From the NCBI GenBank assembly GCA_964016885.1, contig OZ024743.1, forward strand, positions 26,660,001-26,724,000: 64,000 nucleotides of DNA. The letters are read 5' to 3'. The DNA is from Eledone cirrhosa. Lineage: Eukaryota. How positions within the stretch are numbered: position 1 is the stretch's first letter; every line of letters begins with the position of its first letter. The notes beneath the pieces are model-generated. The model did not search any database. It was not told the DNA's origin and saw nothing but the letters and a program-made list of their open reading frames with translations. Both the position numbers and the translations under genes were made by a program. Of this stretch, positions 8,971 through 55,615 are shown one piece after another.

Positions 8971-9276
8971 CTAGTGGGCAGTGGTTACTTCTTTAGCATT
9001 CTTACCTAGATTAGTCAATGCTACAGCTGGTGAAGGGCAAGGAGGAGAACAGTGAGGGCTGGAAGCGTTTGCTCTAGGGGTGCCTTTCGTTGAGGATTGT
9101 AAGATATTGTGTATAACTGAGCTATTATTGCTGTTACTAATGTTGCTACTACTATTGTTGTTGCTGAAGTCCTTGTTGAGACACTCTAATGAATGTACTT
9201 TTGTCAACTTCCCATTCTCTATTCCAGCAGCTACATAAGAGAATACACACAAAACTGCATAACATATCTGGTCAGC
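8971..9276 (-). CDS. MADD: MADD terminal coding exon K (ADQICYAVLCVFSYVAAG...EVTTAH*)
   Basis: tttcag acceptor; ICY.VLC.FSYVAA MADD C-terminal motif, then an Asn/Ser-rich tail and TAG. Confidence 0.92.
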   Translation of the reverse strand, partial: ADQICYAVLCVFSYVAAGIENGKLTKVHSLECLNKDFSNNNSSSNISNSNNSSVIHNILQSSTKGTPRANASSPHCSPPCPSPAVALTNLGKNAKEVTTAH

Positions 9277-15008: not shown

Positions 15009-15119
15009 TCAAGTTAAGTATGGCCTACTCTTTATACGATAGGTGAGTCTCTTTGAGCTTACGCTCAATGCCATATGTCTCGAAAAGACACGGTGAACCA
15101 TTAAAACCATCTGATTGGC
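15009..15119 (-). CDS. MADD: Alternative terminal coding exon K' (ANQMVLMVHRVFSRHMALSVSSKRLTYRIKSRPYLT*)
   Basis: ctttctttatctctag acceptor, phase 0 after exon J; aligns without gaps to exon K (A.Q....V..VFS...A). Confidence 0.75.
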   Translation of the reverse strand, partial: ANQMVLMVHRVFSRHMALSVSSKRLTYRIKSRPYLT

Positions 15120-15970: not shown

Positions 15971-16017
15971 CATGCTGGATTTAAACTTATGAGGAATCAC
16001 TTGCCTAGTTTTGGGAT
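15971..16017 (-). CDS. MADD: MADD exon J (DPKTRQVIPHKFKSSM)
   Basis: tttacag acceptor, gtaagt donor; 47 nt, phase 1 to 0. Confidence 0.93.
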
Positions 16018-17314: not shown

Positions 17315-17530
17315 TTAACCCTTTAGCATTTACATTACTCTATATTTACTATTGTATTTTCATGGTAAAGGCTTTACCTCACATAATATCGAATCTATGA
17401 GATTTTGATATTAATTATTTTGAGAGCAATACCTTAACATCAATATGAGTGGCTGGTTACAGCCAGTTTGAACAGAAAGAGGTGAGGGAATTCTGGCTGG
17501 ATACAGCTGGTTTAAATGCTATAGGGTTAA
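17315..17530 (+). mobile_element. piggyBac-type MITE family 1
   Basis: TTAA-CCCTTTAGCATTTA...TAAATGCTATAGGG-TTAA; copies at 29879 and 40174. Confidence 0.88.
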
Positions 17531-18037
17531 ACCCAGCCTGTCCCTCAGCTCGTCCAAGCTCTGCCTTAGTCTCACATTTATATTGCATATCCAATGAAAT
17601 ATAGTTGCTTCATTTCTCTCCAGTCTACACATGTCCTCTGCAGTCACAGCCCATGTTTCACTACTATAAAGCATTGTGCATTGCACACAGGCATCATACA
17701 GCCTTCCTTTTGTACATAGGGAGAAACCTTTTGTTGTCAACAGTGAGAGTAGTTCTCTAAACTTCTTCCATCCTATCCTTATTCTAGCTACTGTACTCTT
17801 GGTGCACCCTCCTCCGCTGCCAATTAGGCCACCTAGATAGCAGGAGCTATCAATCATATCTATGGATCTTTCCTGTGACTGGAAAAGGTTTATATCATTA
17901 GCACTCTTCCTCTCGATTTCTCCTGAATATCCTCTACAAGCAAAGTTCTCCCTTCCTGTTAGTCTACTTGTTGTCTCACATCTTTTATGTAACCAAGATT
18001 TACATTGTGTGCATTGTATGGAGTTTATGCCTACTCC
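17531..18037 (-). mobile_element. RTE LINE fragment (Cys-rich finger to SETW region)
   Basis: ORF 17519-18046 with CTQCKSWLHKRC, GWKKFRELL and MLYSSETW. Confidence 0.88.
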
Positions 18038-19119
18038 TTCATGCAAGCATGGAAAAATGGTGATGATGATGTATATATGCCAGCATAGGTGGATATATCA
18101 ACAGTTAGATAAATTGGGAAATTTGTTTTTGATAGATTAATGGTTTGCTTAAGAGAAACCCTATATTTTATGTTGCATACTGACAGGTGGAAGTGATTAA
18201 ATTTAAGAACAATATTTTAATTATTTATTTTTAGGATATAATTATATAAATGTTCAGTAAATATGAACAAGGAACATACAGGATAATATGTATAACTTTG
18301 GAGAAATAACTATTTACAGGTACAAATAGAGGATTAGAACCCAGGAACTTGTAATTGGAAAGTGAATTTCTTATATCAACAATGACTGAGATTGGACATG
18401 CATTATATGTGTGTGTGCTTGTGTGTATAAATTTTAACGGGTAACATATATAATATATAAGTATATATACACAGTATATTATTATGGTTGATTTTTGCTT
18501 TGAAATTTTAGTTTTGAAATCTGAAATATGTAATTTGATATTGGCTTATTTCTAAATGATGGTTGTGTGTACATGTATGTGTGTGTGTACACACACACAC
18601 ACACACACACACACATCTATGTACATTCTTCTCTCTTTCTCTTCCCACACTGTCTCTGAAATAATAAAAATGTATATTGCTGCAAAATCTAGAAAAATCT
18701 TCAATAGTAAAAGCTTTAGAATAAAAATAACATTATAAACTTAACATTATATTGAATTAAGTTATGAAATCAGATATTAAGTTTTTAAAATGTTTGTTAG
18801 ATTAGTTTTGTATGAAACAGCAATTTTGATTATTTAAATTGGAATTATTTTTCTGATCTTTTTTATGAAGTAAATGATGACTGAAATGTCTCAATATTAT
18901 ATTGCTTTTACACACAAACACACATATAAATGAATATATATATATTATCACCAGACACCAGAAACACACACACACACATATATATATAAATATATTATAC
19001 ATATACTTATATATATACCTCCAGTTATTATTAGTACTCATTTTCAGCTGAGTATACTGGAGCAACATGAAATGAAGTGTTTTGTTGAAGATCACAACAC
19101 ACAACCCGGTCCAGAAAAG

Positions 19120-22172: not shown

Positions 22173-23889
22173 ATATATATATATTATATATTTTACACAT
22201 ATTTTATTCTCATAGTAATCTTCATATTTTATTCCCATATATTGATTTTGATTGTAAAGAGTAGTCTGGTTTCTATTTCCAATAGTTTGTTAGGATCAGA
22301 AATTCCTTGAGAATATCCAGATTCTTTAGTTAATAATAGATCGCCTTGATATCATACAAATGTTTTAGTGAACATATGGTTCTTAAGCTAGTAGGGATTA
22401 AGCTTTGTAGTTGAATGTAGAGATATGCCACACAAAATTTGATCAAACCTTACTTTTTCTTCAGTCATTTATCTGAATTTTGTATACTATATGGCAGTTT
22501 GTATCTCATATTATTTCTGATACACTCCTGTGAGTCTAGATTATAAATTGCTTTATCTATTACAAAGCTAGTGGTTAAAAGATGCAAACTGATCTTTCAT
22601 CCTTTGCTAAATAGATTTAGTAAATTCTTTAATAATAATATGAATAAATTATTTTGGGTAAAAAAAAGGTTCCTAATCCTGATATCAAACTGTAAGATTT
22701 CTTTCTATGTTAACATTATCCACTTTTTAACTATTCTATAAACAATAATTGTATAATTCAGTTGTATAGTTGTACAATGACAACAAGCTCAAGTTGAACT
22801 GATTCTGACTTTCATGGTGGTCACAAATATCTTATATTGCAAATATTTAATAGGAGTTTACACATTCTGATAGCTTCTGCAGTCTTGGTAGATACTGAAG
22901 AGACTTTTGTTCTTAATAGATTACTGAAAGCAAAGAAAATTATTCAATGGAATGCATCTTGAATAACTGAAAAGTAAAACACCTCTTTAAAACATTTATG
23001 AAAGAATATAAAATATCAACAATACAATTTATGATGTATAAAATGCATCTGTAAACTGGATTTCTCTTTTAAATTAATTTCTAAATGCTAATTCTTAAAA
23101 GCCAAAATTATTATTTTTTATATTTGTTTATTGCAATTATAAAGAGTCTTTATTACAATTTCTAATATAGAAATAAGGCTACAAATTTAGAAAGGATTTA
23201 GTTCGTTTAACCAACTTCATTATTTGACTGTTACTTTATTTTGTTGACCTTGAAAAAAAACAAAACATCAAGTTACACTCAGTGGGATTTAAACTCAGAA
23301 CACAAAGAGCTGGAACAAACATTTTGAGGTATTTATCAAATGCTCTAATGTGACTGTCAAGCAATCACCACTATAATTAGACTTAATAAGAATAACAAAG
23401 GTTCTAGGATTTGTTAATTAGAAAGTAATAAAAAGTAGTTTATCTGAAAGCAATACAAGTATTATAATTAACTATTTTTCAGTAATAAGTATATTATTTA
23501 AGATAAGCTGATTAGATTTTAAAGAATTGGTTTCAAACTCAGCTAAGGAGTTAAATTACTGTCATTTTAGTAGACAAGAATTCAATTAAATATAAAATAT
23601 TGAAATCTAAAAATAATAGGTATTTGCTTATAACAAAAATCAAAACAAAACATATACTAATTGTAGTTTTACCAATCAAGCACAAAATGTACCAGATTTG
23701 ATATGTTTTAGCACCACTTAATGCATCAATTTTAGATTTGGTGTGGCCATACTATTTCAGCTCTTTAGCATATTTAGTACATTTTGGCACATTTTTGTGC
23801 TGTCTCCTAATTAGATATAAATCATAGTTTGTTTGTAAATAATAATAATAATAATGTTTCTACTTTTAGCACAAGGCCAGCAATTTCCC

Positions 23890-25165
23890 CAGTGCATTAT
23901 TAGGTACAGTGCAGGAATTCTGAAATGGAATGTTACTGAACAAAAAGAAATGGATAGGAAGACTAGGAAGGTAATGACTACCTACAGCATGTTCCACAAG
24001 AAGAGAAATGTTGATAGACTCTACTTAAAGAGATCTGAAGTTGGAAGAGGTCTTATCAGCATAGAGTACGGTGTTCAGATGGAGAAAAACAGTCTGCACA
24101 AATATGTGTCTGACAGCAGAGAGCCAATGCTCAAAATTGTACTGAAGGAGAAGACAATAGACCAAGGGATGTCTAAGGAGGAAATAACAAGGAGGAAGAG
24201 CAACCTTCATGAAAAACCCCCCATAGCACCTTCTTTAAGAAAACGGAATTCAGAAATCCACAGACATGGAACTGGTTAAAAAGAGGAGACCTTAAAAAAG
24301 CTACAGAAGGAATGCCAATGGCTGCACAAGAGCAAGCCTTCAGAACGAAGTGGGTGAAACACCATATTGACATGGAGGAGGCTAGCTCACTGTGTAGGAA
24401 CTGTGGAGAGAGAGAGAAGAGACTGGCTCACATCCTATCTGAGTGTAAACACCTAGCCCAGACTCACTATAAAGGCTGGAGATATGATATGATAGGAAAG
24501 GTGATTCACTGGCATTTATGCAAACTAAACAATTTACCACATTCTGAGAAGTGGTATGAGCATAAGCCAGAGCCAGTGATAGAAAACGATCTAGTGAAGG
24601 TGCTATGGGATTTTAGGATACAGACAGACAAGAAATTAGAACACAATAGGCCTGACCTGGTGGTTTTTAACAAGGAAAAAAGATTGTGCCTGATTGTAGA
24701 TGTAGCCTGCCCCTTTGACACAAGAGTGCAAGAGAAGGAGAACATTAACCGATACCAGGATCTAAAGTGGGAGTTAAAAAGGATTTGGGACTGTCATGAG
24801 ATCAAGGTCATCCCGATTGTCATAGGAGCACTAGGTACTATTTCAAAGAGTTTTCAAGGATGGTTAAAGAAGATTAGTCCAGCCCTGTTTTTTGGAACAC
24901 TTCAAAAGGCATGCTTGCTGTGAACAGCAAGAACCCTCCGATACGTCCTGAATGTCTGAGGCTGCAGGTAGCGGCTTGATATTCATTTGAACCAACTTTC
25001 CAGTTAAATAACTGTTTCTACTTTAGGCACAAGGCCAGCAATTACCCAGTGCATTACTGGTACTTTATTTTATCGACCCCGTAAGGATGAAAGGCAAAGT
25101 TAACTTTCCAGTTAAATAACATCAATAAATGAGACTCAAAGAATAATAGTAATAATAATAATAAT
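23890..25165 (+). mobile_element. 5'-truncated RLE-type non-LTR retrotransposon (R4/Dong-like)
   Basis: CCHC knuckle CRNC...HILSEC, RYD (RHD-like), PDLVV...IVDVACP PD-(D/E)xK nuclease, IVIGALG; frameshifted; flanked by (TAA)n. Confidence 0.88.
25013..25101 (-). mobile_element. SINE 3' fragment with 19-bp TSD
   Basis: aactttccagttaaataac at 24994-25012 and 25102-25120. Confidence 0.88.
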
Positions 25166-32360: not shown

Positions 32361-32979
32361 TATGGATGCATATGTCTTTTACTAATGTATGTTAGGGAAG
32401 GATGTAAAACATTGGTGAGACAAACAAATAACTAATGTTTTTCAAATAAAGTATCTTGCATATTCAGTGTTAGCAGCAGGTCAAATTATTTAACAGAATT
32501 GTTGGAGTAATTACTTTAATTCTGTCCTAACCATTCCTACTGAGTAGTGAAAGTTACTGATTTTTTCCATTATACCTGTTAAAATAACATATCTTATTTG
32601 ATTGAATTTATCACCTGTTGGCTAATAGTCTATTTCACAGCTATTTTACAGCAAATAGAAATTAAGTTAATCTTTATTCATTAAAAAAAATGTTTATTAC
32701 AATTTCATTAGTTTTGAATTTATTTTGCATTTTAAGAATAATAATATATCCTAAAATATAAGATATAATTTCATTTGCCCTCACTTAAATTTTCAGAAAA
32801 CTGACATTTAGGTAGTTTAAAATTTATGATGATAATAAAATGGAAGGATTTTGCATGCGCTGGCAAAATGTTTGGTAGTAACATGCAATTAGAAAACATT
32901 TGGTGCATAATTGAATGTTTGCATCCAAAGCGGAAGCTAGAAGCAATAAAACAAAAATGAGTTAGTCTTTAATTCTTAC

Positions 32980-33052
32980 CAAACTCCTCTAGTACAAATA
33001 TGCCTCCTTTCTGTGTGAAACATTTCTTGACACGACATAGCTCAATAAAGAA
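32980..33052 (-). CDS. MADD: MADD exon I (FFIELCRVKKCFTQKGGIFVLEEF)
   Basis: tttcag acceptor, gtaaga donor; 73 nt, phase 0 to 1; resembles the MADD FIEL..IKKC....G.FVLEEF motif. Confidence 0.95.
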
Positions 33053-33689
33053 CTGAAAATAAAAACGAAGCAACTTAAAGCTGTTGATTCACAAAAGTAT
33101 ACCACTTGTGGACAAAGAGGATAAGTGGCTCACATAGACTAACTAAACTGAACAAAATAATAGCTCTACAAACTACATAAAAGCAATATATATCTGGCAG
33201 ATGCAAATGAAAGGGAAAAAGAGGTGCCAGGGTAAAAATTTATTTAATCACCATCCTGACCCGATTTTAGTGAATTTAATTCAAAATCTATATTCAGTAT
33301 ATTTTGCTGAATATAGGATTTTATCAAATAGATGCTTATATAAAATTTTTCCTGACAGTTTGCAAAGTGCTAGTAAAGCAATCACAACTTATAAACATTG
33401 ATTCCACTCAGGTGTAAAATAAGCATACTGACAGCATACCAAAGTAAAATAAACACGCACAAAAAAAAAAAAAAAAAGCATAAAGAGGGCAAGCACTAGT
33501 TTGAAACAAAAAAACGATTTTCAGTAAGAATTGTGTCCATACATATAACAATCCAAATAAATGTCTCTATAAATTTATAAAAGAAATGGGAGATAATGTA
33601 TACTAGAAGCAAAAATGTGTAGAGTAAAAAGAAAGGGTAAGTGGTGGAGTGAAGAGGATCTACAAGTGACAGACACCATAAGCCATTAC

Positions 33690-33698
33690 CTCAAAATC
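33690..33698 (-). CDS. MADD: 9-nt microexon GATTTTGAG (DFE)
   Basis: Long AG-free pyrimidine tract with TGC motifs, ggcag|GATTTTGAG|gtaatg; frame preserving between NSK and FFIEL. Confidence 0.8.
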
Positions 33699-34251
33699 CT
33701 GCCCCCAGCAGCCGATACAGCAGGATGAAGAGAGAGAAAGAGAGAAAAAAAGATAACATGTTAACCGGCATATTAGCAACAACATTAGCTGCAATAATAC
33801 AGTAACGTAAGCCCAGGTTATTAAGATGCTTATATCTTTCTTCGGATTTTCAAAAAACAAAACATCAATTGACAATAAAACAAAACATATACAGAATTGA
33901 AAGCATTATTGAATGCAAACTGTTTTTAAAATCAATAGCATTGATTCAACAGAAAGCATTTGAACACCTTAATCATAGAAACATCTAACATCTTAAAAAA
34001 ATATGTGAAATGATTTAGCAATAATTCGAAGTTTTTTTCATGCTAGAATTCACAAAAAAATCTAAATAATATTTCTTTGCCATGATGTAAACGATATATA
34101 TTTTCTTTAATGAGCCAAATGACTGTTTATAATTATGTAATCTATAAAAAAGTTCAAGTGTAATAAAACAGATGTTGGACTTATATACACATAACGAGAT
34201 CAAAGAAAACCTTGACTAATGTATAATAGGATATATTAGTTAAAAACATAC

Positions 34252-34256
34252 CTCAT
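34252..34256 (-). CDS. MADD: Candidate 5-nt microexon ATGAG (completes N, then E)
   Basis: ttttcttacatcatag|ATGAG|gtatgt; phase 1 to 0; 16+5=21 nt. Confidence 0.5.
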
Positions 34257-34988
34257 CTATGATGTAAGAAAATTTTCAATCAATTGATCTCCTTGGAGTT
34301 ATCTCCCTTGCTTCTAGTTTTTAGATTTGTATGTTTTGAATAATCTTAGTTGACTGAAGTTTTTCAATTCACTATATTATATGTGAAACTCTACTGTATT
34401 AGAATTTAGAAGTCTTCCCTGAGGTATTTGTTTCAGCCCTATTGATGATATTCATAATCAGCATCACTACATTCCTTCTATTTCAGTATATATTGATTAC
34501 TTTTAGTTTTGCCAACTTAATAGAATATGTTTTGTTTAGAAGGTTGAGTAAGATTGAAACAAGTCCATTGTTTAGATTTTGAATACTCCTAAAGAAAATA
34601 TTTGTATACCTTTTACATGGATAATATAATTTGATCAAAGATTTTCAACTCACTATATTTCATATACGAGACCATATTGAATATGACATTGCAGCTTTGT
34701 TACATAGATTACTTTAATTTGCATTTTATACAATCTTTTAAATAGATACTCAATCCATTACATATATAGATATCTGTTTAAAACAAATGCTGAGATAAAC
34801 CTTATTATGAATGGCAAACACTCAAAAGCTAGATATTACTATAGAAATAAATGATTAACAAGAAAATGATTTTTAATGAAAAACAGTAATATTGAAGAAA
34901 ATAAATATAAAAATATGAAATGGGAGCGAAAAAATATGAAATGGGATATAAGATACAAAATTAAACTATTTTTATATATGATATCAGA

Positions 34989-35243
34989 TTAACCCTTTTG
35001 ATACCAAATGATATGAAACCGCCCTTGGATCAATGATACAAAACTGTTTCAACTGTTCATATTTATCTAAAGTTCTTTCATCATAATTTTATGTAAGAAT
35101 CTTTGTTAATTTCCAAACAACTTTTTAATAATGAGAAAGTTAGTTATTCTACTAAATTACTTCAAAATGATTTTTATGTTTCAAAATTATTTTAAAATGA
35201 TAGGCAGTATCTTTTCTGAGAACTATGGTAATGAAAGGGTTAA
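34989..35243 (+). mobile_element. piggyBac-type MITE family 2
   Basis: TTAA-CCCTTTTGATACC...GGTAATGAAAGGG-TTAA. Confidence 0.8.
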
Positions 35244-36344
35244 AATATTTTTATATTTAATTAATATTTAAATCGTTTGTAGACAAGAGAATAATTTAGG
35301 TGAAAGTAGCATAGAGTTGAATATAGGTTAAATGCTACAGATTCTGCTTTAAAGCAATTTGTTTTTATAGTTAGCTATTTCAATGTAGACTAACAAAAAA
35401 TGAGTATTAAATATTTGATGGGAATTGAAAATAAAAAAAACAGCAATAAATCAAAACAATATTGTTATAAAACCACACACATGAGTTGAAAAGGGAGAAC
35501 TATACATTTTATATTATCAATATTGGGAAATATGAACAACACATTTAAAGAGATTATATAGGAGGACAATGGCTGAGTTAGTAATGATTATAAGGCCACT
35601 AAGTTGTAGTCTACAAAAAAGCTAAAATTATTTTCTTTACTATAATAGAAAACAACACCCAATTTACAGTCCAATTTTTAGCTGGTTGTGACATATTCAA
35701 CCATATTATATCACTTACTACAACTAGTCTTTTCAATTCTTCAAATCCTCTTTGCAAAATAAAACCTTTTCAAATCAACCCAACCAAAATTGGCTCTAAT
35801 TCCATGAAACAAAGCTACTCATTTTAAAGGATTCCTATTTATATGTCACTAAAGGGTTTCTATTTTATATGTCACTATCTTAGTAAGGAAATAATTAATA
35901 ATTTCAGTAAAACCCCCAAAATTATTCATTAATTCATTGAAATACAGTTTATTTCATTAGAAATATGGTCATAAAAAGGTTAAACATATTTTAAGAAAAT
36001 TTATAAATTTCTAATAATGGCAACAGACACCTAAAACCATAGATTTTTTTTATTAAGAGTAATGTAAGTAATTGAAGATAACACATGCTGTCAAGGACAC
36101 CAACTATCTAAAACATTATTCATATGAAGGATAACACAACTGTATAACATTTAGTTTATAAAGCAGGTGAAAGAAACAATACTGTCATCCAATGTTAAGT
36201 ATATTCAAAATAATCAACTTTTCCTATTTTTTAAAAACTAAAACACACTACTTCTATAGTTTTACAATTTTCTCATTAATGTATCATTCCTTTCTGAATA
36301 TCTTTACCATCATACTGACATTAAACAAATATTAGTCTGTGGCA

Positions 36345-36609
36345 TTAATCTTTTTGATACCAAGCCACCTGAAACTGATGCTGGTTCTACAATTAAAAAT
36401 ATGTTTAATTTGAAGTGTTTGTCTAAAACCTTTCCATCATAATTTTATCTAAAAAACCTTTGTTAAATTATGTTGCAAACACTAACTTAGCAACAACAAC
36501 AAAAAATTAGTTATATTACCAAATCCTTCCAAATTCTTCATTGTTTTCAAAGTTATTTGAAAATCATAGATCTTGTCTTTCATTAGAAATATAGTAATGA
36601 AAGAGTTAA
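36345..36609 (+). mobile_element. MITE family 2, older copy
   Basis: Internal similarity to 34989-35243, TTAA ends; further decayed copies near 35700-35983, 38465-38710 and 44837-45070. Confidence 0.7.
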
Positions 36610-39189
36610 AGGCTTGTACTGCCAAGCCAAAGATCAAATTCAAACTTTAGTTGAAGATCGAGGCATATTAAACTGTTTAATGGAATTATTTAATTTCAAA
36701 ACAATTATATTTTTCTATGACAACAAATATATCACATCTTTGAAGGAGTTGTAGGGGCACTGTAGTAATATACAGTGTGTCTTGAGTATTTAAGGCTAAT
36801 GGAGCCTATCCCTCTCCAGGTCAGAACACAGCCAATTTCTTAAAGAGAAAGAGAAGAAGAATCAACTCCAGTGCAAGACATGTATTCTATTTATAAACCT
36901 CAAAAGGATGAAAGACAAAGGTGATCTTGGTGGAATTGAACTCAAAGCACAGAGAACATGAATTAATACAGCAAAGCATTCTCTCCATCATTCCAATGAC
37001 TTTCAATTTGCAGCTTTCTGTATATTTACTTAATATCTTCAATGAAGTAGAAACATAAAAAAATATTAGTCATCAATTAATATTGTTTTAGTTTCACTGG
37101 ATCTTTTATTGTACTTTACCATTTTAATGTTGTACACATTAAACAAGTTGATGCTATTTATCTAAATATCAATATGATGAATGATAAGTACAATTTCCAT
37201 TTTAATTTAGAGGTTAGCATTAGAATTAAAATACAGTTATAAAAAGCTCTTGTATGGTTGAGTCAAGTAAAGGTTCAGAACCTATGTAAACTAATCAAAT
37301 ATTAGTTTGATGTAAAAAGTGAATTCTAATGTGTTGAACTAATGTTTGCTGACACAGGCCACAGTCACCAATCTCCTGAATTTTACAGTTTAATTTTGTT
37401 TACTACCCTGCATTAGTTTTGTATAATCATTTTCTACCTTTTTAATTACTCCTTCTTTATTAATAATGGTACTGCTGTATCAGAAAATTCATATACACAG
37501 AAACTACGCTACTGACAGACAAGGAGGTAGTGAAAAATAAATAGGATAGACTGCTATATTCTTGAATAATGGACATAACTAAATAGGTGGATATCTAGAA
37601 ATAGGGTTTGTTAACCACAATATCAAACTACAATTCAGATATCAATCAGTACTTTAAAAACAAATAACAAATATTCTGGCACTGATGATTTCTTCCTTTG
37701 TTTTTATACTGGTTGCAACATCTTAGTATGATTTGTAATGACCATTTAGATCGATCACTAGGTTCTTTGTGTAATACTTTCTCCTCATGGGAGTTGAGAA
37801 GCTTTTGAGTAACATTACACTACCTTGTACAACCACTTTACAACATCATAACCACATTGCATATCTACAACAATGAGCCAGCACTAGGCTCCTTGCCAGG
37901 CTTTGATGCTTGGCAGGAGGGAGAGAGGAGGGGGGAGTCTTCAGAATCTTCTGGGTAGTCACTCTAATTTGCAATAATCTTTCAGAATAAGCATAACACA
38001 GTAAATCTAAATTAGAGGAGGCACCATTGAAAAGTAGTGGACCATGCTATCAAGTGCCCTCCCCTCCTTGGTGAATACTAAAATACTACTTTGTACTCTA
38101 ACTGCACACCAAAAACACTACACTGCGCATAAACAACACTATACTGTATACCAAAAACATTACACTGTACACAAATGAAGCTACATTGCACATCAACACT
38201 ACACCACACACCAACACTTTTTACATTATAAATGGTATGTGACCAATTCTAAGAAAACTTATAGAAACCTGGACACCCCTATCAAAAGACAAAAATGGTT
38301 CATATTTCTCATGAAGGTTATAATATACTTTACCTTTTGTCTAATCTCCACTAATGATATACAATAGGCACATATAAAGATATGATCAATCAAGAAATTC
38401 TCATTAAATTTCCATCTTTGGCTCTATAATTTAAATGCTCTGTCTACCATGGTGTATAGCTGTATCCCTTTTGATGTTAAACTGCCTGAAACCAACCCTG
38501 GTTCTATGATACTATGCTTTTTATTCTAAACTGTTTAAATTTGTGTTTAAATCCTTCCATCCAATTTTAAGTAAGAAACTTTATGTTTCAAACACCAACT
38601 TAATAATGAAAAAGTTATTTTACTAAATCCTTCCAAATTCTGGATTATTCTTAAAATTATTCGAAATACACAGGCAGAGTATTTCCTTAAAAACATGGTA
38701 AGGAAAGGGGCAAGTATAGCATTTGAAATCTACTCAGGAGGAGGAACTAAATGCTTATTAAATGAATTACTGAAAATAGCCATTGATGTTCAAATGTGGA
38801 TGCACCATAGCCAAATAGCTAAGAAGATCACTTAACATGATCGATCCTACTTTAATAATAGCTTAAGGTCAACTCAAGCATTGTGAGTGAAATTAGCAAG
38901 ACGAAAACTGTCTAGGATATGTTGCTTGGATTAAATATGCAATTCAGAGGTTAAGCTTTGTCACACTCTGTGCTATGCTGATTCTTCCTGAGGATTACAT
39001 TAAGGATACATATGTACATGGAATACATACATGCTAATTCAAAAAACAAATAGTTGATCAAATAAGTGAATACTCAATGTCAAAATATACATAGATGCAT
39101 TTGCTTAATTTACTACAACTATTGAATTCATGCCACGCATGGTTGGTTTTTGATGCTAATGATCAAGTTCTCTAATATGTCGACTGCCT

Positions 39190-39375
39190 CTTGGTCCCAG
39201 CTGATGGGATGGAGAAGACATTACCCCAGAGGATCATGAGGGAAATGCGCTGGAATAGTCACTCCACCTCAAAGGACTCGCACCTGCAGGCAGCCAACTC
39301 CGCTCTGATAGTAGTGAGCAGGGATGTGATCCGAGGGCCAAGAACACCAGAGGTCTCTACTATTGTATTAGCTTA
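39190..39375 (-). mobile_element. CRE-like RLE non-LTR retrotransposon C-terminal remnant
   Basis: Minus-strand translation IVETSGVLGPRITSLL...LFQRISLMILWGNVFSI resembles the VET.G..G...QR.S...RGN terminus. Confidence 0.55.
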
Positions 39376-40173
39376 GTCCTACATTAACATTTCAGCCTTC
39401 CAAGCTTGGTCATATAGAGGTGTGGTGCACAAAACAAGGAAGGAAAACAAATTAACCCAAATAAGTGCACACTTGACCTTCTAACAAAGTTTTCTGAGGG
39501 TGAACAGAGATAAGAGTAAGGTGGAAGCACTAACTGCAGATTGATATATGTGGCTTGTATAAACCATTCCATGTATAGAAGAACATAGAGCTTTTAAGAC
39601 ATTGATTACATCTTAAAATTGATAAAATACAATTCCCTGTTAAGTTGGTTTCCACTTTTTTGGGCCATTACTGAGATGCATTTTAAGATCATAGGAATCC
39701 ATTGATTTTATCCTAGGTCTACTGAAAATATTAGTTCCAACACTACTTTTCTACAGCAGCAATCTTCTTGACTAAATTTTTTTATTATTAAATTATTATT
39801 CTATGCATAATTTCTTAGTTACTAATAAAGCATCATAGTGGATCCAAAAATGGTAAAATTAACAAAGACATTGTCTTTCAAGAGACTAAGCTAAGGTTTC
39901 AACTACAAAAGTAGGTAGCATATGCCAACATAGAGGACAAATAAAATATTAATGGAGCTAACCTCACATTTTTATTAATAATCTAACTTAACTTTTCTCA
40001 CACCATCAATATCCCATTTAAACTATTTAATTTCACTATTTAATTTCATTTTATTTAGGCTATTGTCTAATAATCGTTTGCTACTTTTTTAATCTGATCT
40101 GCTTTCTTTGTCATAAAACACCTTAATATTATATGAATTTTAAAATTATATGAATATTTAAATAGAAAACTTA

Positions 40174-40402
40174 TTAACCCTTTAGCATTTACATTATTCT
40201 ATATATACTATTGTATTTTCACAGTAAAGGCTTTATCTTACATAATTATCTCATATGATATCGAATCCATGAGATTTTGATGTTATTTATTTTGAGAACA
40301 ATACCTTAATGTAGGTATGAGCATCCAGATACGTTTGGTTTGAACAGAAAGAGGTGAGATAGTTCTGGCCGGATATGGCCGGTTTAAATGCTAAAGGGTT
40401 AA
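40174..40402 (+). mobile_element. piggyBac-type MITE family 1
   Basis: TTAA-CCCTTTAGCATTTA...TAAATGCTAAAGGG-TTAA. Confidence 0.9.
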
Positions 40403-40763
40403 TGTAAAATATATTATTGTACATGTAATATCTTTGACAGTCAAATAAAACATCTACTCTCAGGGATAACTGTATAATTTATAAAATAGAAAGAGAATTT
40501 AATAGGTAAAATATGAAAGTGAATGAAATGAAATCAGTGCTATGCAAAATTCTATTTGCAGTAACCTATTGAAGGAATATTTTAGTTGTTATTATTCACT
40601 GCAAGAACACTGCATAAGTGCATATAACAGTAATCCCCCTTTAAATAAATCACTAGATAATATTTACTAAGTGAATGACAGGGAGGTTAGCACTTGCATC
40701 CATATACAGTTACAGAAGCATACAAAGGATGTGAAAACAACAACAACAACAAAACATACTCAC

Positions 40764-40779
40764 TCTTAATACGTTGGTT
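40764..40779 (-). CDS. MADD: Candidate 16-nt microexon AACCAACGTATTAAGA (NQRIK + 1 nt)
   Basis: tatttatttttctag|exon|gtgagt; phase 0 to 1; frame completed by the 5-nt microexon. Confidence 0.6.
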
Positions 40780-43700
40780 CTAGAAAAATAAATAATTGAG
40801 CTACTTTAACAGATTTAAAGCATTGTAATTATATGCAATATCTAGCTACATATCACCATTGTGAAAGAGAGAAAAACTTGATTCAGCACCTTAATGTAGA
40901 AGTAATTTCTCTTAAGAATATTTTATATGAAATAGAGTTTATTTTTTTATGGAAAACGATAAGTGAAAATTAAAATTTCTAAAGAGAAGAAATGCATCTT
41001 AAAAGACAAATGTGCTTTTGACAGAGAAGAAAATTTTAAAATACGTTTAACTTCAAATTTTACTTATTTAACATTAATAATAAAGGAGTGCAGTAAGTGA
41101 TTTATACAGAAGTTGGGTGATAATCTTCAGTAATAATAAACTAATTCAAGTGATTAAATTATCAAGTAGTCAAGCATTTATTGTTGTGTATTTTTTAACT
41201 TTATTTAAAGATTAATTAATTCGCTGCATAATTTAGGACATGGGAGGAATCAAATGCTTTAAGGACAATCAGCAATTAGATGGAAGAATTGAAGGATCTT
41301 GAAGACAGAAATGATGAAAACAATTAAGATTTTAAGGTGTTAATATTTAACAGTTAAACACACCAACATAAATATAGGTATTTATTTTGATAAAGAAATC
41401 TAATATTATGTGGAGAGTGTATGTATTAGGAACACAAAAACATTTTGGAATACTAATGACTCATTTAAACTTACAGATTGTTATGTTTAGATAAAGCAGA
41501 GTTATAGTATTTGGATAGTATTTTATGCGAAGATGATGTTAAGGCTCAAGCAAATATGAAGGAGAGAAAAATATTCTATTCTATGCTGTTTTTATTGTCT
41601 CAATGACAGAATATATAAAATTATTAGTATGCAGCAAATAATTGATGATTATTAAACTAATTTATCAACAAGTAATAAAAAGGGTTAAAATGAGGAAATT
41701 TAGATGAATATACACTTTCAACTTTATTGAAGACACATTAGAAATATTGATACAAGAAACATTAAAATAGAGAAATTTATTGTTTCTTACTGTATTAATA
41801 GTATCAATAGAAATACAATTGGCTGATTATTTATAGAAAACATTTGTAGTCGTAAAGGGTGAAAACAGAAGAGCTGATGTCTTGGGATTCATTTTGCATC
41901 TTCATTATTTATGTTGATTATTTATGTTGATCTTATAGTTCTTAAAAACTAACTAAGAGTGAAATAAATTTACATATCCACTCTAAGTGGATCTATTTAT
42001 AGTAAATATTAGCGGTTACAATAAAAACAACTTATTTGAAAACAGAAAGGCAGTAGATATGACAGTAGATTTGAAGCTTGATATGATAAAAACAAAAGAT
42101 AAAAATATATGCCTAAAATGATTATATTAATTCAGACTCATCTCATTATAGTTTAAATAATATTTATAGCATTAAGCTTAACAGTGAGTTACTGATTTAT
42201 AAAGCCCAAAATGTAAACAGCTAAGTGGTTTTTTAGCAAAAAAAAAAAAAAAAAAAAAAAATGTTTCATAAAAGTATTTCAATGTAATATATATATAAAA
42301 ATAATTATATGTAGATATGACTAATATAATAAGAAATAGAGACTCCCAAAGATGGGTGCCTTACAGACAAGACATTGTTGACAACAAATTAGAGGTGTGA
42401 TTAAAAGTACTTCCAGAAGAAAACCAAATATCACAAACAACAGTTATTGACAATTCAAGATAAAAAAAGTATCAAATACTAATGCTTTCAAAATGTAGAC
42501 AGAAATGAATCTTTTTATTTTCAATTTATTCCATTAAGTTTTTACAAAGAATTTTAAACATGAACATGGAACATTGAAGGTGGATAATTGACAGCAAATA
42601 TGGATAATTAAGAAAACTGAAGGAAGTCAGAAAAAGTTATGGCCAGTATCAATGATATTTCATCAAGGAAACAGTTATTTGCTTGAATGTTATTTTATTG
42701 TATACCAAGTCTTAAATAGTTGTTTTCCAACAAATAACTAAGTAAATCTTTCTTCACTCATTATACTATAAGAATGTACTCTAATAATCTGAAAAGAGGA
42801 AATAGAGCAACCTTGTTCTCAGAGGCCCTCCAGGAACTGATGGTTGACATTGTTACGATTACTGTTTAGTATACACTAGTAGGGGCTAATATTTAAAAGA
42901 AAGAATGAAAGAAGCTCTTGAAGAGTGTAGTTCCAGAAAAAGAAGGAGACAAAGCGACAAGGTAAGATTTATTTAGATAGAGGTAGTACATAAACAAACA
43001 AGTTTAGGGGTACAAAACCATTGCAGTACTTATAGAAAGCGTAAGAGTAATAAGGTGCTACATTTGTCCAGGAAGTGAAGGTATTTTGGTGGTGTTGTAA
43101 TGAGGATGAAACTAAAATCAATATTTTGTTAATTTATTTGTATATTTGTTTTAATAACAACATTGTCCTAAAATAATAAAAAAATTACTTACAAGCTCAC
43201 ATTGCATGCATATTTTCACAGGGTTTTACAGTATATTCACTTTCTCACAATCACAGTTTATATAACTTTTTCCAAATGTTAGCATGTTTTGATGGGTGTA
43301 AATATTTAAAATTTTGCATGTGAATCAAGTCTATCACTAAGATTGTGTTCTGAATGCCAATAGATTCACTATAATATTGGACTGTAAGCTGTAAACAAAT
43401 TAGTTAAATTCTTGCAGAGTTGAGTAAAGTGTCCTGTCAAACACCATTACAAAATAACCCTTAATTTACTCTATGGTTAGCTTCTAAACATTCCAACCAC
43501 ATTTCAATGTGTTTTGATTAACATTTGTGATATCACCATCACAGATTTATCCTGTTTTCCACATTGGCATGAGTTGGATGGATCATCATATTCTGAGACT
43601 AGACTGGTCAGATGACCACATCTTACTTATACATTCCAATTTGGCATGATTTCAATGACTGAATACCCTTCCCAATGCCAACCATTTTACAGTGTGCACT

Positions 43701-44533
43701 ATGTGCATTGTTTTGTGACACCAGCACTATCACTTTACCGTATGGATTTGGGTGCATTTTATCACGGCACCAGTACTTACAGGGTTAGGCTGGGTGTGTT
43801 TCATTGTAGCAACAGTACTAGTTGGTCATTGGTTTGACTGAAGGGCATTTTCTACCTTATGCTTATAGGGAGGTATCTTCTCCTAGAGAAACTGTGATTA
43901 GTGGGTGAGAATGGAGGTACGAATATAAAGCACATACTTAGTATATCGACAACTTGTCTCTAATTTTAACATATTTATCTAAGAAAAAAGTATATTTAAC
44001 TATAGTTCATGAGATATCTGATTTTATGCTATTGACAAAATTGTAAAGAGCTTTTCTCATTTTCATATTGAATAATTAAGTTTTCTATAGTTTATAACAT
44101 TTAAACTATAGTATTTTCTTATCGATAATACCATCACCAACCTTTGTTAATGCAAGAATCAATAAATATGTTTACAGCTTTGAATTAATAAAAGAAAGAA
44201 AATACTGATATTATTTCATAACAATCATAAATTAGGTAATTCAGTTTTAAGATAATTGAATCACATTGTAATTATGTTTAACTTACTTTATTAAATATAG
44301 ATATAATATGTCCCACCCTTGCAAGCAGGGAAGAGCGGACGTAAAATGATGATAAAATGATGATAGATATATGTAATAGGAAATCAAGTATACTTTAACC
44401 AATTCAAAATAACTATGAATTTTGAAACACATCTATCTCATGCTAACATGGAAAAAATGAGTATAAAATATATAAAAAACACAAGTTAATAAAGTGAGAA
44501 AAATGTGCTACTTAATATATGAATGGTTGTTAC

Positions 44534-44640
44534 CTTGCTATTAGCTAGAAGAAATCCAATACCATCCATGCACACTTGGAGTAGTCCTCCTTGTCCAGAC
44601 CTGAGATCTTGAACTGGGAATTCCCCACCTATGTCAGGTC
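44534..44640 (-). CDS. MADD: MADD exon H (GPDIGGEFPVQDLRSGQGGLLQVCMDGIGFLLANSK)
   Basis: GGEFPVQD...GGLLQV signature; tttcag acceptor, gtaaca donor; phase 1 to 0. Confidence 0.96.
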
Positions 44641-45239
44641 CTGAAATATATGGAAATATGAACTGTAGGAATCCAAAAGCAGAAAATAACTCTAGCAACA
44701 CTCAATTGCTATATATAATTGGGCAAGAGACAGAAAAAGGTAGCTAAGTATCAGATAATCAAACTTCCTATCTTTCAAAAATTTAAAATATTGTTTTTTA
44801 TTATATTGCAACTATACAAAAAGGATTTGTTACCAAATCCTTTTTGTTATTAAACCACCTGGAATTGTCGCTGGATCTACAATATAAATCTGTTCATTTT
44901 AGTGTTTATTCTTATCTAAAAAAAAGACCTTCCATCAGAATTTTATCTGAACACCATCTTAATGAGAAAGTTAGCTATATTACTAAATACATTCAAAATC
45001 TCAATTATTTTCAAAATTAATTGAAAATCATAGGTTGTGTATTTCGTTTAAAATATGGTAATCAAAGGGCTCATTCTAGTAAATGCAGTTCTCATTATGA
45101 TGTATAAAACTCTTTGTTTCAATTGCATGTTCTTCCCTAACAGTGTGATTATAGTGAGAATGTGATAGAAGTGTGTGTGTGTGAGAGGGGAGGGGGGGGG
45201 GCTGAAAAGAGAAGAAATGGTAGAGAGTAATAGAAGAGA

Positions 45240-49349: not shown

Positions 49350-49820
49350 TTTGGATGAGTTCCAATTAAGAACAAAAATATTTCTATATCTATCATGTTC
49401 CGAGAATTAGTCAAAACTATGACCTTGTGATGTAAAGAACATTTTGACTGTGGCAGCAGATATAACACTGAACATTACATCCGCTAGAAAGAGGTGCGAA
49501 GTACTAGTCACAGTATAAGCAGCTCAACAAATTAAGAATTTGGAGCAGATATATACTAAGCTCAGGTATCATAACATATATAATATGTATGTTAATTATG
49601 TTTCTTAGTAGAAAAGCTCAATGGATGTTTATCCAGAGCATTAATAATTCAAATTATAAGATATATGTATACATATATAGAGAAAAAGCCATATATCATT
49701 AGAGAAACACATAGTATTTTGTACATATATATAAAGCATACAATATTTATGAAAAAGTACAGGACAGGCAGGCAGACACATACACGTTTTTTTTTGCTAA
49801 AAACATTATAAATAGCCTAC

Positions 49821-49928
49821 CTCCATAAACAACATATCCCCTGTATTGTCACTGCCCCAATGTACAGTGAATGACTGTTTCTGCATGAGTCTGCTGCCCA
49901 TGGGTTTCAGATCAATATCATTGCCATT
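49821..49928 (-). CDS. MADD: MADD exon E ([36 protein letters not shown])
   Basis: 108 nt, ttttag acceptor, gtaggc donor, in frame; translated by hand. Confidence 0.95.
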
Positions 49929-50856
49929 CTAAAATTAAAGAAAAATTATTTTATAACCAAAAAATCTTTTAATTACATTTGACATATACAATAAAGCTAT
50001 GAAACAACCAACAATATGTAACATGAAGTGAAACATTAAAATCCTCCATTTTACAAGTATTTCTTAATCTACAGGTTTGATTTTTTAAGATCTACCTTTT
50101 TTTTTGTGATACCCATTTACTTTCAAGCTGTTGAAAGCTATGTTGAAATGGCAGCTGTGCAATAAAACAGGAGCAAATCCTTTGGCATAGTGTAATCTGA
50201 AAATATCCTGTCCAGCTCTAAAAAGATTTGGGTAAAGAACAATCCCATGAGTTCCAAAACTTCTCTCTAAGTTTGTTTAAGTAAAGCTGATCCAGATTAT
50301 TCAATTTCTGTAATATCTCGTACATGCATAATTTGAATCCTTAATCTCATCAACTCCAGCTCTAAGTAATTTAAATGTTTTTTTTTAAACCTATTATTAA
50401 TCTTAAATTACTCCTCACGATAATGTATTAGCTTCATGTATAACATGATAACCTTTTAGATCAATGCACTCTAGATCATATTATTCATCAATCAATAAGA
50501 CCCCCTCAATTGAAAATGTTCAATTTCTGGACTAGCATTGGCCTTTATACTTTCTCTGCTTCTACAGCTGTTACACGTTTTTAAAATCTTTAACTTTCTA
50601 CTCCTGATTATCTATCTCATGTTTCTCTCTCTTACTTATGCAAAACATTAAGTACAATCGTTTGTTTATTAATTTCTTCAAGATATTTTAGTAAATTAGT
50701 TTTGTTTCTCTAGCCAATTGGTAACAATTAGTAAAACAAATATTAAATGAATGCTACTATATTCATTCTTTTTATTGTAAGAGACAATTGATTCCATTTA
50801 TTGAAACTAATTATATGTCAAAAATAGAAAAGCACCCAGTTTCAATGAAGACTTAC

Positions 50857-51073
50857 CAACTTATTAACTTCATCTAAAAGGTTATTGACATCTTGACTGT
50901 ATTGGAGGCCAATATGAGATTTACCAAGCAATCGTCTAATTTTTTTCTTGATCTCTATTTTTTTCACATCCATCATTACCATGAATCCAATATGGTTATA
51001 TAACATATCAGACAACAATTTATCTTCATCATGTTCTAAACGTTTTTTCTCTGCATCTCCAAGTGAATTATAC
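50857..51073 (-). CDS. MADD: MADD exon D, death-domain-like region ([20 protein letters not shown]...[27 protein letters not shown])
   Basis: [14 protein letters not shown] signature; cctcag acceptor, gtaagt donor; phase 2 to 0. Confidence 0.96.
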
Positions 51074-51902
51074 CTGAGGGAATAAATGATAATTTTAATA
51101 TATGCAGTTTGGAAAACAATATAAAAGAATATGTATATAAAGAGAGACACACTAAGGAAAACAACTTAGATAATAGTGCTACCTAATTTTGCATCATTCT
51201 TCCATAAATTTAATCTTGAACCAATCATATCATTTAAGATTTCCAATGGTTATTTTGCAGTAAATTATACACTTATAATTCTTTATTATTTCCATCACAT
51301 ATCTATATCAATGCTGTTATCTTCTTCACACATCAACTAATGGTTCACCAATTCAGCTGTTTTGCCCACCTAATTAATGAACTTACCAATATAGACTAAC
51401 TAAAGTGCAAGAAACAACCAACTCTAAATGTCATAGACTAGATACTGGTTCAGACATTTAAGTTATCTAATAGCTACTGGAATTAAAAGTAGCAGAAGAT
51501 TAATAATCATCTTTACAAATAGTAAAGAGATTTCATAACAACAGTTAATTGATTTGGATTTATCAGAAATGTGATTCATTATGGAAGTGAGGCATGACTG
51601 TAAAAGACCTCTATCAACAAAAATTGAACTGAATACCTTGTATGATCTACTCTCAATTAAAACCAGATAGAATCCTAATTAAGTGACTGAAGTAGTAAGG
51701 TATTACTGATTACAAGATTGGGATCATCTGATTTTGTCATGCAAGGAAAATTTAGAGAAAAATAATCAAATGTTAGTATCAGATGATTTAAAGGGCAAAG
51801 TATACCAAGAAGGATAGGGAGAATCGATGAGAACCAAATGTCACAACTAATTCAACATAGAAGAAAAAGTAATAAAATGTGAAAGCAAAAGTAACTACAA
51901 AC

Positions 51903-52023
51903 CTTTCCATCATTTCACCTGGTCCCTGATCCATGCCGATAATATCTCTTTCCTGAGCAACAGCATCTAAAAACATATCCTCCCAAAATTGCATTGAATC
52001 CCATAACCGACTGCGGTCTTTGC
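51903..52023 (-). CDS. MADD: MADD exon C ([41 protein letters not shown])
   Basis: Recognisable MADD sequence (QFWED.FLDAV..ER...GMDQGP.EM); AG/GT boundaries; phase 1 to 2. Confidence 0.96.
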
Positions 52024-52948
52024 CTACAAGATAACAAAAAAGAAAAGTGATACGCCTGTGTGTCTTATATTAATCACTGAATTATGTTTTAGCCATTTGA
52101 TTTACATGAATTTCAGAAAATTAAAATACAAATGACTATATAAAGAAATTGTTGAAAATGTAATACATTCGGATGAAAGTGCATTCACATAAGGATTAAT
52201 TCTGCCAATACAAGATCAAATACAAATTAATTTCATCTTTATACAAATGTTAACATATGTTTAAAAAAGTTACTATGGATATCCAGAAGGGTGTCAGATA
52301 TGAAACAGTCAGTAAAAATATATATGATGTGCTTTATGGTATCTAAGTCATGGTTCACAACCCTAACTTATTATTTTACTCAGGTAAGTTTCAGTTTCTT
52401 TATACTTTAGTGTAATGATAACACAACTATCTGGCATGTGTTAGAGGTCAGTTCAAGTCCTTTCTAGTCTTGTTTTGTCATGGCACCAGCACAAGGGAGG
52501 TTGTATTGCCTTATATCACATATATGTATGTGAATGTATATATGCACATATCTATGTGCACATATAAATATACAATGTATTAAAGTTATATCTGTATATC
52601 TAATATGTAGGCATGTAAACATGCCAGAAAATATGAATTTCTCTGTAAATTGAAAAAAATGACACGTATAGGGAAAATTGAGCCAAACTAATCACCTCCA
52701 TTGTCAATCAGGTAATACATGATGGTGTCATATCCAATGACTGTCATAGCAGTATACTTATTAATTGATACAAGAGAAAAGGGGATACTCTATAAAGGAG
52801 CAATTATAGGAGGGGTATAAAACTGATAGACCAAAATGAGGATGATGATGGTTATGATGATGATATATATATATATATATATATATCATCGGAAAAATAA
52901 TAATATATTTCTTTTTTATTTCTGTTTGCTGTTTGCATACACACACTA

Positions 52949-52995
<47 letters not shown>

Positions 52996-53540
52996 AAAAG
53001 TAAATGGAAAAAACACAACAGATGATGAAGTTCAATGAAGATATATATTAGTTTCACGTTTAATATAGTAGTAAAAGTCTTTATGAGTTGGACACCAGAG
53101 ATCATCATGGAATGGCAGTTCTGTTTTGCAGGTGAAATTCTGTGCCTTACAGAACATCAATCAACTGCCCAAAACAGTAATGATGTGGATGACTCCTGAA
53201 AGCTGACCAAAAATGACTTTGTGACGCACATTCCAAAGCAACCTACAAACTGTCAACATCCCCTGGCATGGATGTTAATGAGCTGCCACCAACTGACAGC
53301 GTTGGAGACGATTGGTTGACTTTTGTTCCCGACAGAATAAGCTGGACTAAGAGCTAAGAGTTAAGAAAGCATGTAACTTAGTAGCTTGGGTGTTTAGCTG
53401 ATGAATGTAAGATCATGTCCTATGTCCTTGAGCAAGACACTTTATTTCACATTGCTCCAATCGGAAATGAATTGTACCAGCTGAATTTTCCTTAGAACTA
53501 AATTATCAAAAAAACAAAAACAAAAACAAAAACAAATTAC

Positions 53541-53697
53541 CAATGAGGCCTTCAAAAAGATATGTTTTGCCTGTTTCTGGACTAGGTAATGGAGATGTAT
53601 TAATCATCTTTCCATCATGATAACGAAATCCAGCACTTAAATTACTTTTGGTGCTCCAGATACTTGATGATCGACTACGTCTATGGTAGTTCACCAT
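53541..53697 (-). CDS. MADD: MADD exon B (MVNYHRRSRSSSIWSTKSNLSAGFRYHDG...KTYLFEGLI)
   Basis: ttatag acceptor, gtaatt donor; YLFEGL motif typical of MADD; phase 0 to 1. Confidence 0.92.
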
Positions 53698-54167
53698 CTA
53701 TAATAGAAGTACAATTGATATTATCGAAGAATTAACATGTAATTGAAACAAATATGGAATGTGATAAAACACTTTCATTTAATTCAAGATTAGTATGCAA
53801 TACCAGTAAACATGAAACCAAAGAAAATGATGAATATTTTAAATGATCTATTCTCAAATACCATCTAATCATTAAGTTAACACCTTGATTTTCCACAGTT
53901 GAACTGTTACTATTTTATTTTTATCAATCTGAATAAATATTATCAAACATACTATAAAACAAAATCTTTAATACATATCAAAATGAAAATCCTCACTGCT
54001 AGAACAGTTAAAACAGTTAAATGTTGCAAAAGACAGCAATGGGCAAAAATGCCTCAGGGGACAGAAACCTGCAGCCAATAGTGAACAGAGAGACAATCCA
54101 CAAGGTGGGTGACTGGCAGATGAAATGCAGGTAAACATAAGCAGTCCAATATAATAGCTGTACTAAG

Positions 54168-54424
54168 TTAACTCTTTCATTACTATATTTCTAGTGAAAA
54201 ACAGTATCTATGATTTTTAAATAATTATGAAAATAATCAAGAATTTGGAGGGATTTGGTGATGTAACTAAATTTCTCATTATTAAACTGGGGTTTGAAAC
54301 ATAACAAAGATTCTAACATAAATTTATGATAGAAAGTTTGTAGATAAATGTAAATACTTTAAAACAATGTTTTGTGTCATAGAACCAGGAGTAGTTTCAG
54401 TTGGCTTGGTAACAAAAGGGTTGA
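54168..54424 (-). mobile_element. MITE family 2, reverse orientation
   Basis: Reverse-complement similarity to 34989-35243 and 36345-36609. Confidence 0.72.
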
Positions 54425-54645
54425 CTATGATATCAAGTGTCCAACACTTTAGTATCACAGTCATTGAACTTGAATTAGTGAGTAAAATTAGAAACAAAGA
54501 ATGACTAAACAATACTCAGAGGATCCTATATTAACTCCAAAATAAATATTCACCAAAAGTAAATGGGATCAATTCTAGATTTTTTGTTTCAACAAGATAA
54601 TAATATTTTGTTATTTTTTCAAACTAATTACTGATAAAAACTCAC

Positions 54646-55088
54646 CCCAGAAAGTTCCATCTCACTGTCTGACACAGTATTCCGGACCAAATGATGGTTA
54701 ACCTTTGGCTTCTGGCGCCGTTCCTCCTCAGGTTGATTATCAGAACTGCTGCTTACTAATGTGCTGCCATCAGACACTTCTGAATCAGTGCTATTAACCT
54801 TATTTTTCCTCCGAGCTTTAAGTAACTCTTTATTGCGTACAAGATCATGAAGAATATCACTTTCAGGATCTGTAGTTTGTCTATCTGATTCAACACCTGT
54901 TACAACAATGTCACAAGACTTGACATTCTCAGAAGCAGTGTCGCTCATATTTGTCTGATCAGCACTGTGACTTTTATCACTTTCTGATTGTTCTTCAGAT
55001 TCTCCAGCATCAACATCACTTGTAGTTTCACCAACTGATGCAATTTCTATATTTTCAAATTCTTCTCCATTGATAATAACCGGGGAAC
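54646..55088 (-). CDS. MADD: MADD exon A (first exon seen; acidic Ser-rich linker GSPVIINGEEFE...VSDSEMELSG)
   Basis: Open frame; acceptor ttcaatag and donor gtgagt; phase 0 end joins exon B in frame. Confidence 0.85.
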
Positions 55089-55615
55089 CTATTGAACACA
55101 ACAAAAAACTATTTATGTCCAAATGCTGATATGTTATTAAAAAGCATGACAATGAATTTGTGAAGACACATATGACTATTACAAAATACTAGTTGTACAT
55201 TTTATGGTTATTATTTAAATCAAAATAAAATTTATAATAGTTACATAATAAATGGGAAGATATCAAAATAAAAAAAATGCAATATCATATTCACATACTT
55301 CTATTGTAGATTAAAAAGGGGAAAACTCATGGTTGATACTTTCTATTCAAAATGTATAGATTTGTTTTCCTAACAATTACAAAATCCCAACTGGCAGAAG
55401 AGTTTAGATAATTGAGTTAAATTCAGTTTATTACTAATACATATTTTAACTATCCAAAATATAAGAAAAGCTATATTTATCAAGTTACACCAAACAAAAT
55501 ACAATACACATAACTCTCTACTACCCTACCAACTTTACTGAATTTTCAAACAAATCTATTCCAGTCTCATTCAAATAACTTCACTGTTGCTTAGGAAAAA
55601 CAAAGTCAAAACAGC

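Follow-up and report, generated by a model that had tools for sequence, protein, structure and literature searches.

MADD is a guanine nucleotide exchange factor for Rab3 and Rab27 whose C-terminal parts are needed (PMC6526710 and PMC11141940, the accessible portions of which do not address its last PH-like domain itself). Nor do the accessible portions of these papers, or of PMC3994957 on general MADD function, deal with the splice junction considered here. Two splicing events in this gene have been described. The first concerns a 9-nt exon, which the accessible part of a preprint with a species set including Octopus bimaculoides places in a set of just two bilaterian-ancestral neural exons (bioRxiv 10.64898/2026.09.05.749416). 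In the accessible parts of a second study, inclusion of the MADD microexon is neural-specific and eMIC-dependent in zebrafish and human, the zebrafish 9-nt exon (DreEX0044304) having a percent-spliced-in value (PSI) of 38 in neurons and 0 in 5 listed non-neural tissues and changing by -39 PSI upon eMIC loss (PMC12626424). The acceptors of eMIC targets follow a code, given in the portion of the source available, of a long AG-free zone, a UCUC-rich tract, UGC near the acceptor and a strong branch point (PMC8797185). The second event concerns the penultimate MADD exon of human and mouse, which is read in two frames, the shifted frame ending the protein after 6-7 residues in the last PH domain (UniProt Q8WXG6-6/-7); the accessible text presents it as the dual-coding example with the highest conservation, in which frame use is brain-biased (bioRxiv 10.64898/2026.02.24.707805). 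Here we compare with these systems a stretch of 64,000 nt from Eledone cirrhosa (contig OZ024743.1; the window), the minus strand of which carries the 3' part of MADD. A preliminary description had proposed that the intron between two of its exons, H and I, holds a chain of three microexons of 16, 5 and 9 nt, the first two of which would rescue each other's reading frame.

The assignment of the gene to MADD stands, an exon matching Octopus sinensis MADD at 97% and Argonauta MADD at 95%, with Pfam domains (uDENN, DENN, Death_MADD and a C-terminal PH_MADD) in agreement; a variable exon of the gene has 85% protein identity to three Octopus proteins. We propose that the H-I junction may act as a splice switch for the last PH-like domain. 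The 9-nt exon would add three residues to a loop of the domain, likely in neurons, and the 16-nt exon is probably a regulated, minor, octopod-level "PH-off" exon and not half of a frame-rescuing pair. The features to which we refer are as follows.

44534..44640, minus strand: MADD exon H (107 nt), ending ...LANSK in phase 0; strands 1-3 of the last PH-like domain (PH_MADD positions 1-36).
40764..40779, minus strand: 16-nt microexon (NQRIK plus 1 nt), frame-shifting, with a single genomic match and without an eMIC-type acceptor code.
34256..34685, minus strand: degenerate copy of a dispersed repeat, which provides the would-be acceptor of the 5-nt segment.
34252..34256, minus strand: 5-nt segment ATGAG, a likely splice-site look-alike at the repeat end.
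33699..33790, minus strand: eMIC-type acceptor region of the 9-nt exon.
33690..33698, minus strand: 9-nt microexon (DFE), the apparent orthologue of the bilaterian-ancestral neural MADD microexon; it also provides the stop that is read after the 16-nt exon.
32980..33052, minus strand: exon I (73 nt, 3n+1), the skipping of which shifts the frame of exon J.
15971..16017, minus strand: exon J (47 nt), dual-coding, reading DPKTRQVIPHKFKSSM after exon I and IPKLGK* upon exon I skipping.
15024..15119, minus strand: alternative last coding exon K', ANQMVLMVHRVF..., last helix of the PH-like domain.
8971..9276, minus strand: alternative last coding exon K, ADQICYAVLCVFSY...

All three segments lie on the minus strand where they had been placed, each with AG before and GT after, and translation of all 16 splice combinations confirmed the frame arithmetic: 16+5+9+I is open, 16+9 leads to RF* and 16+I to ILY*. 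Combinations with the 16-nt exon and without the 5-nt segment either stop within 7-8 residues or, when the 16-nt exon is joined to exon J, lose 19 domain residues in frame. The description of the acceptors as pyrimidine-rich fits the 16-nt exon (pyrimidine share 0.76 at -20..-4) and does not hold in general, the 5-nt segment and the 9-nt exon having shares of 0.59 and 0.41; the 27-nt pyrimidine tract of the 9-nt exon sits further upstream, at -55. A small splice matrix, trained on the 12 acceptors and 10 donors of MADD in the window, was used to score the 471 YAG..GT segments of 3-30 nt in the H-I intron, and ranked the 5-nt site 1st and the 16-nt site 3rd. In 100 local first-order shuffles, sites scoring at least as high as the 5-nt site occurred at a mean of 2.3 per shuffled intron, with at least one in 89% of them; the corresponding numbers were ∼3.8 per shuffled intron for the 16-nt score and ∼120 for that of the 9-nt exon. 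Because the true 9-nt exon scores so poorly, the matrix serves only as a chance yardstick. By their own letters the three segments do not rise above chance, and since the matrix fails on the true 9-nt exon, outside evidence must decide; such evidence confirms the 9-nt and 16-nt exons, and we found none for the 5-nt segment.

For protein-level comparisons we used 577 distinct MADD-like proteins, 509 of which carry an anchor before the H-I junction; the 68 without it were excluded, group counts cover the 503 of 509 that could be assigned to a group (unassignable fragments being excluded), and odd tails from gene models running into the intron were not scored as isoforms. A three-residue insert is present at the H-I junction in 16/29 cephalopod, 20/178 other mollusc, 26/71 arthropod, 3/23 echinoderm/hemichordate, 13/191 fish and 1/4 annelid/nemertean proteins, and in 0/7 nematode proteins. 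It reads DFE, DLE, ELE, EIE or DME in protostomes, ESE in sea urchin and ERK in fish, and DFE is the sole difference between the O. sinensis isoforms X1 and X2. The acceptor of the E. cirrhosa 9-nt exon has an 88-nt AG-free zone, five UCUC motifs within a pyrimidine run of 27 nt, UGC at -24 and -12, and branch-like YURAY motifs at -90, -78 and -66; this full combination was seen in 0/11 other acceptors scored. As a frame-preserving cassette within the 3-27 nt range, with this acceptor code and with deep conservation of position and length, the exon fits the eMIC/SRRM3/4 type, and it shares with the described microexon its gene, its 9-nt length, its in-frame three-residue insert and its eMIC-type acceptor. 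We consider it the orthologue of the bilaterian-ancestral neural MADD microexon, and as such already known. The zebrafish exon is taken as that of the H-I junction from its length and the ERK insert. Inclusion of the E. cirrhosa exon would be switched on by Srrm234/eMIC, and it differs from the described system in that it also gives a stop codon after the 16-nt exon.

In an AlphaFold model of a 342-residue relative that carries the same insert (P0029; 51-sequence alignment, mean pLDDT 81.7), DFE falls in the loop 263-269 of the last PH-like domain, which links its third strand (257-262) to its fourth (270-273). A search of solved structures returned no MADD structure, only DENND1A/B being matched, and Foldseek gave tandem PH-, PTB- and FERM-type matches with low TM-scores, which agree with Pfam and are not decisive. 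Isoforms and orthologues, together with the predicted model of the relative, bear out the proposal of a genuine 9-nt exon that places DFE in a loop.

The same junction is the site of a second, subtractive event. When exon I is skipped, exon J is read in its second frame and the protein ends in IPKLGK*, with the stop 26 nt before the next junction; exon J is accordingly dual-coding, one exon being used in two frames through alternative upstream splicing, and the frame shift is the one described in human and mouse. Proteins of this short form are found in cephalopods (IPKLGK* in 15/29), in other molluscs (similar tails in 17/178) and in fish (FLKLKKW* in 20/191), and in 0/71 arthropod and 0/23 echinoderm/hemichordate proteins. 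All 15 of the 15 tails tested fit the shifted frame of exon J, and the fish tail has 7 residues against 6 in molluscs, the fish stop lying one codon later. In the Sepia cluster, all 12 full-length open reading frames listed from transcript contigs are short forms, 10 of them with DFE, and they may stem from few studies. The stop stands at one codon in 14/14 mollusc lineages while the overlapping main-frame pair is variable (VI, IV, II, VT, VV), and these main-frame residues permit the stop with only a 0.25-0.5 chance each. The rough chance that the stop was kept is 7e-5 over 11 lineages or 4e-4 over 9, if equal codon use and independent lineages are presumed. Taken together, these comparisons point to a mollusc-wide short MADD isoform whose stop codon shows signs of selection.

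The short forms keep 36-38 of the 92 PH_MADD positions, corresponding to three strands, and by the P0029 model lose four strands and the closing helix. The accessible text of the human/mouse study describes the domain as trimmed, whereas here Pfam and the P0029 model suggest that most of it is lost; that study covers human and mouse, and the part available mentions neither mollusc cases nor an octopod 16-nt route. Short proteins would retain the DENN and death domains as well as the first PH domain, and would finish with a short tail rich in lysine and arginine; the fold of the last domain would be lost in them, and the basic tail may have a role of its own. Other lineage-specific short tails or inserts were observed at the H-I junction in proteins of venerid clams (P0508, P0512), of a limpet (P0516, P0521) and of a chiton (P0494). 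They suggest that this junction has repeatedly gained small exons or read-through, and some could be artefacts of annotation.

The 16-nt exon is annotated in O. sinensis, where RefSeq isoform X9 ends LANSK-NQHIKRF*; the window predicts NQRIKRF* for 16+9, 6/7 residues being alike. Both splice sites and the residues of 4/5 whole codons are common to the two species, and X9 joins the 16-nt exon to the 9-nt exon without a 5-nt piece. The exon is therefore real in the sense of being annotated, and its use alone truncates the protein as had been predicted, with RF* or ILY* in the window and NQHIKRF* in X9. Its product occurs in 1/29 cephalopod proteins and in 0 of those of other groups, and a search with the X9 tail among short proteins gave 20 matches, none with a 16-nt-type insert. 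The acceptor has an AG-free zone of 19 nt, no UGC within 30 nt and no UCUC, so that with its acceptor code absent and its length of 3n+1 the exon lies outside the eMIC type. A second possible donor lies 4 nt beyond the exon (40779-40760, minus strand), giving a 20-nt form of length 3n+2 that ranks 6/471.

A possible alternative, to which we give a minority share of our confidence, is that the 16-nt exon is a low-level cryptic exon without function, kept only since the two octopods are not very distant, the 9-nt exon and exon I skipping being as described above. The count of 1/29 cephalopod and 0/178 other mollusc proteins agrees with this, as do the missing eMIC code, the ∼3.8 equally good sites per shuffled intron and the fact that the sole visible difference between the species alters a residue (R/H). 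Against it, the splice sites and 4/5 codon residues are common to both species although protein identity over the neighbouring variable exon is no more than 85%, and the 16-nt product resembles a tail with apparent selection throughout molluscs. We favour the regulated "PH-off" exon, which shifts the frame and, by prediction, takes away the domain just as exon I skipping does.

The fate of the corresponding transcripts may depend on which exons follow. In vertebrates, junction-based decay follows a 50-nt (50-55 nt) rule. The stop lies 121 nt from the last junction in 16+9+I, 109 nt in 16+I and 48 nt in 16+9+J. Under that rule the first two would be substrates for decay, and the 48-nt form, like the 26-nt form made by exon I skipping, would escape and yield protein; RefSeq lists a protein (X9) for a 16-nt form. 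The exon resembles the poison cassette exons coupled to nonsense-mediated decay, which are likewise frame-shifting, in placing a stop 109-121 nt before the last junction when exon I is present, and differs from them in that skipping of exon I brings the stop to 48 nt from that junction. The preliminary description had held that uncoupled splicing gives truncated or decay-prone products. Truncation is supported; at the H-I junction it represents a conserved isoform class, absent from that description, and not an accident of splicing.

A further alternative, that the 16-nt exon replaces exon I in frame, both being 3n+1, would make the two mutually exclusive and give a full-tailed protein with a shortened PH domain. 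H+16+J is indeed open to the end, and to this extent the suggestion that the 16-nt exon could stand in for the 73-nt exon holds. Its product was found in 0/509 proteins, however, a stop arises whenever the 9-nt exon is included, and about three domain strands would go by the P0029 model; we regard such a replacement as very improbable.

Turning to the 5-nt segment, the ∼430 bases up to its acceptor (34685-34256) are a decayed dispersed repeat, matched at 39 other places, among 40 scored of 98 candidates, with 71-98% identity. In an approximate ungapped projection of 12 other copies onto the 5-nt position, one copy carries tag|ATGAG|g and another tag|5 nt|gt, with AG in 4/12 and GT in 3/12. Because other copies carry similar AG/GT letters, the splice-like letters are a property of the repeat family. 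The segment has no UGC and no UCUC, its longest pyrimidine run is 7, and it too falls outside the eMIC type. Products of 16+5 (NE, NEDFE) were found in 0/509 anchored MADD proteins, 29 of them cephalopod. The segment is likely a repeat-derived splice look-alike, not an exon.

Obligate co-inclusion of the 16- and 5-nt segments, which would restore the frame and make the loop 10 residues longer with DFE, had been the central claim for this intron. The arithmetic does work, the 16 and 5 nt summing to 3n in a stop-free reading, the P0029 model places the insertion in a loop, and a frame-complementing pair in the full sense would occur only jointly. By annotation that is not the case, since the O. 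sinensis X9 isoform has the 16-nt exon without the 5-nt piece and joint products occur in 0/509 proteins. The full-length 16+5 model, at 1729-1732 aa, would moreover be longer than O. sinensis X1 (1725 aa), breaking an order in which the listed isoform numbers fall with length. The site lies within a dispersed repeat and within chance expectation: in 35% of 200 shuffles, the stretch separating the 16-nt from the 9-nt site contained a frame-complementing site (length 3n+2) of its score. Several observations count the other way: the 5-nt site tops the 471 candidates, its donor is good and a branch-like motif stands at -27; a short 16+5 form (1594-1597 aa) would fit the slot of O. sinensis X7, which is outside the 15/25 cluster members listed; exons of 5 nt are often missed by aligners and annotation; and repeats can become exonised. 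We give obligate coupling very little credence, and the claim that two frame-shifting microexons 6.5 kb apart rescue each other fails; the proposed pair is likely not real.

Other points weigh against the reading that we prefer. Support for the 16-nt exon comes from a single automatic protein model (two accessions) of one species, the exon is absent from 4 O. bimaculoides, 1 O. vulgaris, 1 Argonauta and 14 Sepia-cluster proteins, and without an eMIC code it may be noise. The decay predictions borrow for molluscs a 50-nt rule from vertebrates, the fold is modelled for the relative P0029 and not for the octopod protein, and the stop-codon estimate depends on its assumptions. We infer the neural inclusion and tissue pattern of the 9-nt exon in E. 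cirrhosa. Finally, because no short form was seen in arthropod or echinoderm/hemichordate proteins, its sharing by molluscs and vertebrates could be convergent.

This last point bears on a wider proposal, which we put forward tentatively and regard as doubtful: that PH-less, basic-tailed MADD made through the second frame of exon J is a selected switch that dates back to the origin of Bilateria and has persisted from molluscs to mammals together with the ancestral 9-nt microexon, and that octopods gained another route to it, a new 16-nt microexon making the 9-nt microexon a stop signal, so that the same 9 bases would either tune or delete the domain according to what precedes them in the spliced transcript.

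The closing helix of the PH-like domain itself exists in two versions, K' in 108/423 and K in 310/423 proteins with that anchor. K' turns up among mollusc and insect proteins and in those of an annelid, a nemertean and a nematode, is missing from the listed fish and echinoderm proteins, and looks like an old protostome alternative last exon; a single literature search brought up nothing on it.

Three sequencing runs from one sample cover 32900-44700 with unbroken contigs and zero differing letters across the 5-, 9- and 16-nt sites, which confirms the assembly only, the joints shown falling among repeats. No RNA data set was listed as containing 49750-55150, which counts neither for nor against expression. 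Very high-copy repeats occupy 34870-36840, 38416-38810, 39992-40780 and 43932-44700 of the H-I intron region, with a summed contig depth of up to ∼1e6 in a single bin, and one high-copy repeat lies within a few hundred bases downstream of the 16-nt exon. Open frames resembling reverse transcriptase or endonuclease are present in MADD introns at 58431-60838 (plus strand), 56526-57389 (plus strand), 23839-24923 (plus strand) and 17519-18097 (minus strand); by eye, we take them to be retrotransposon fragments.

No literature on mollusc short forms or on the 16-nt exon was found in a search that mostly left out subscription papers and bioRxiv supplements, and VastDB-type tables may list these exons. 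Matches to "madd" in a Caenorhabditis elegans preprint refer to madd-4, a different gene.

What remains of the proposed chain is a known ancestral microexon, an annotated but unstudied octopod 16-nt exon and a likely repeat look-alike. To this our comparisons would add that the short MADD isoform of human and mouse is also present across molluscs, and that the octopod 16-nt exon leads to the same cut. If confirmed, this would pose a testable question about a core synaptic-vesicle regulator, namely what role its last PH-like domain plays and why nervous systems remove it.

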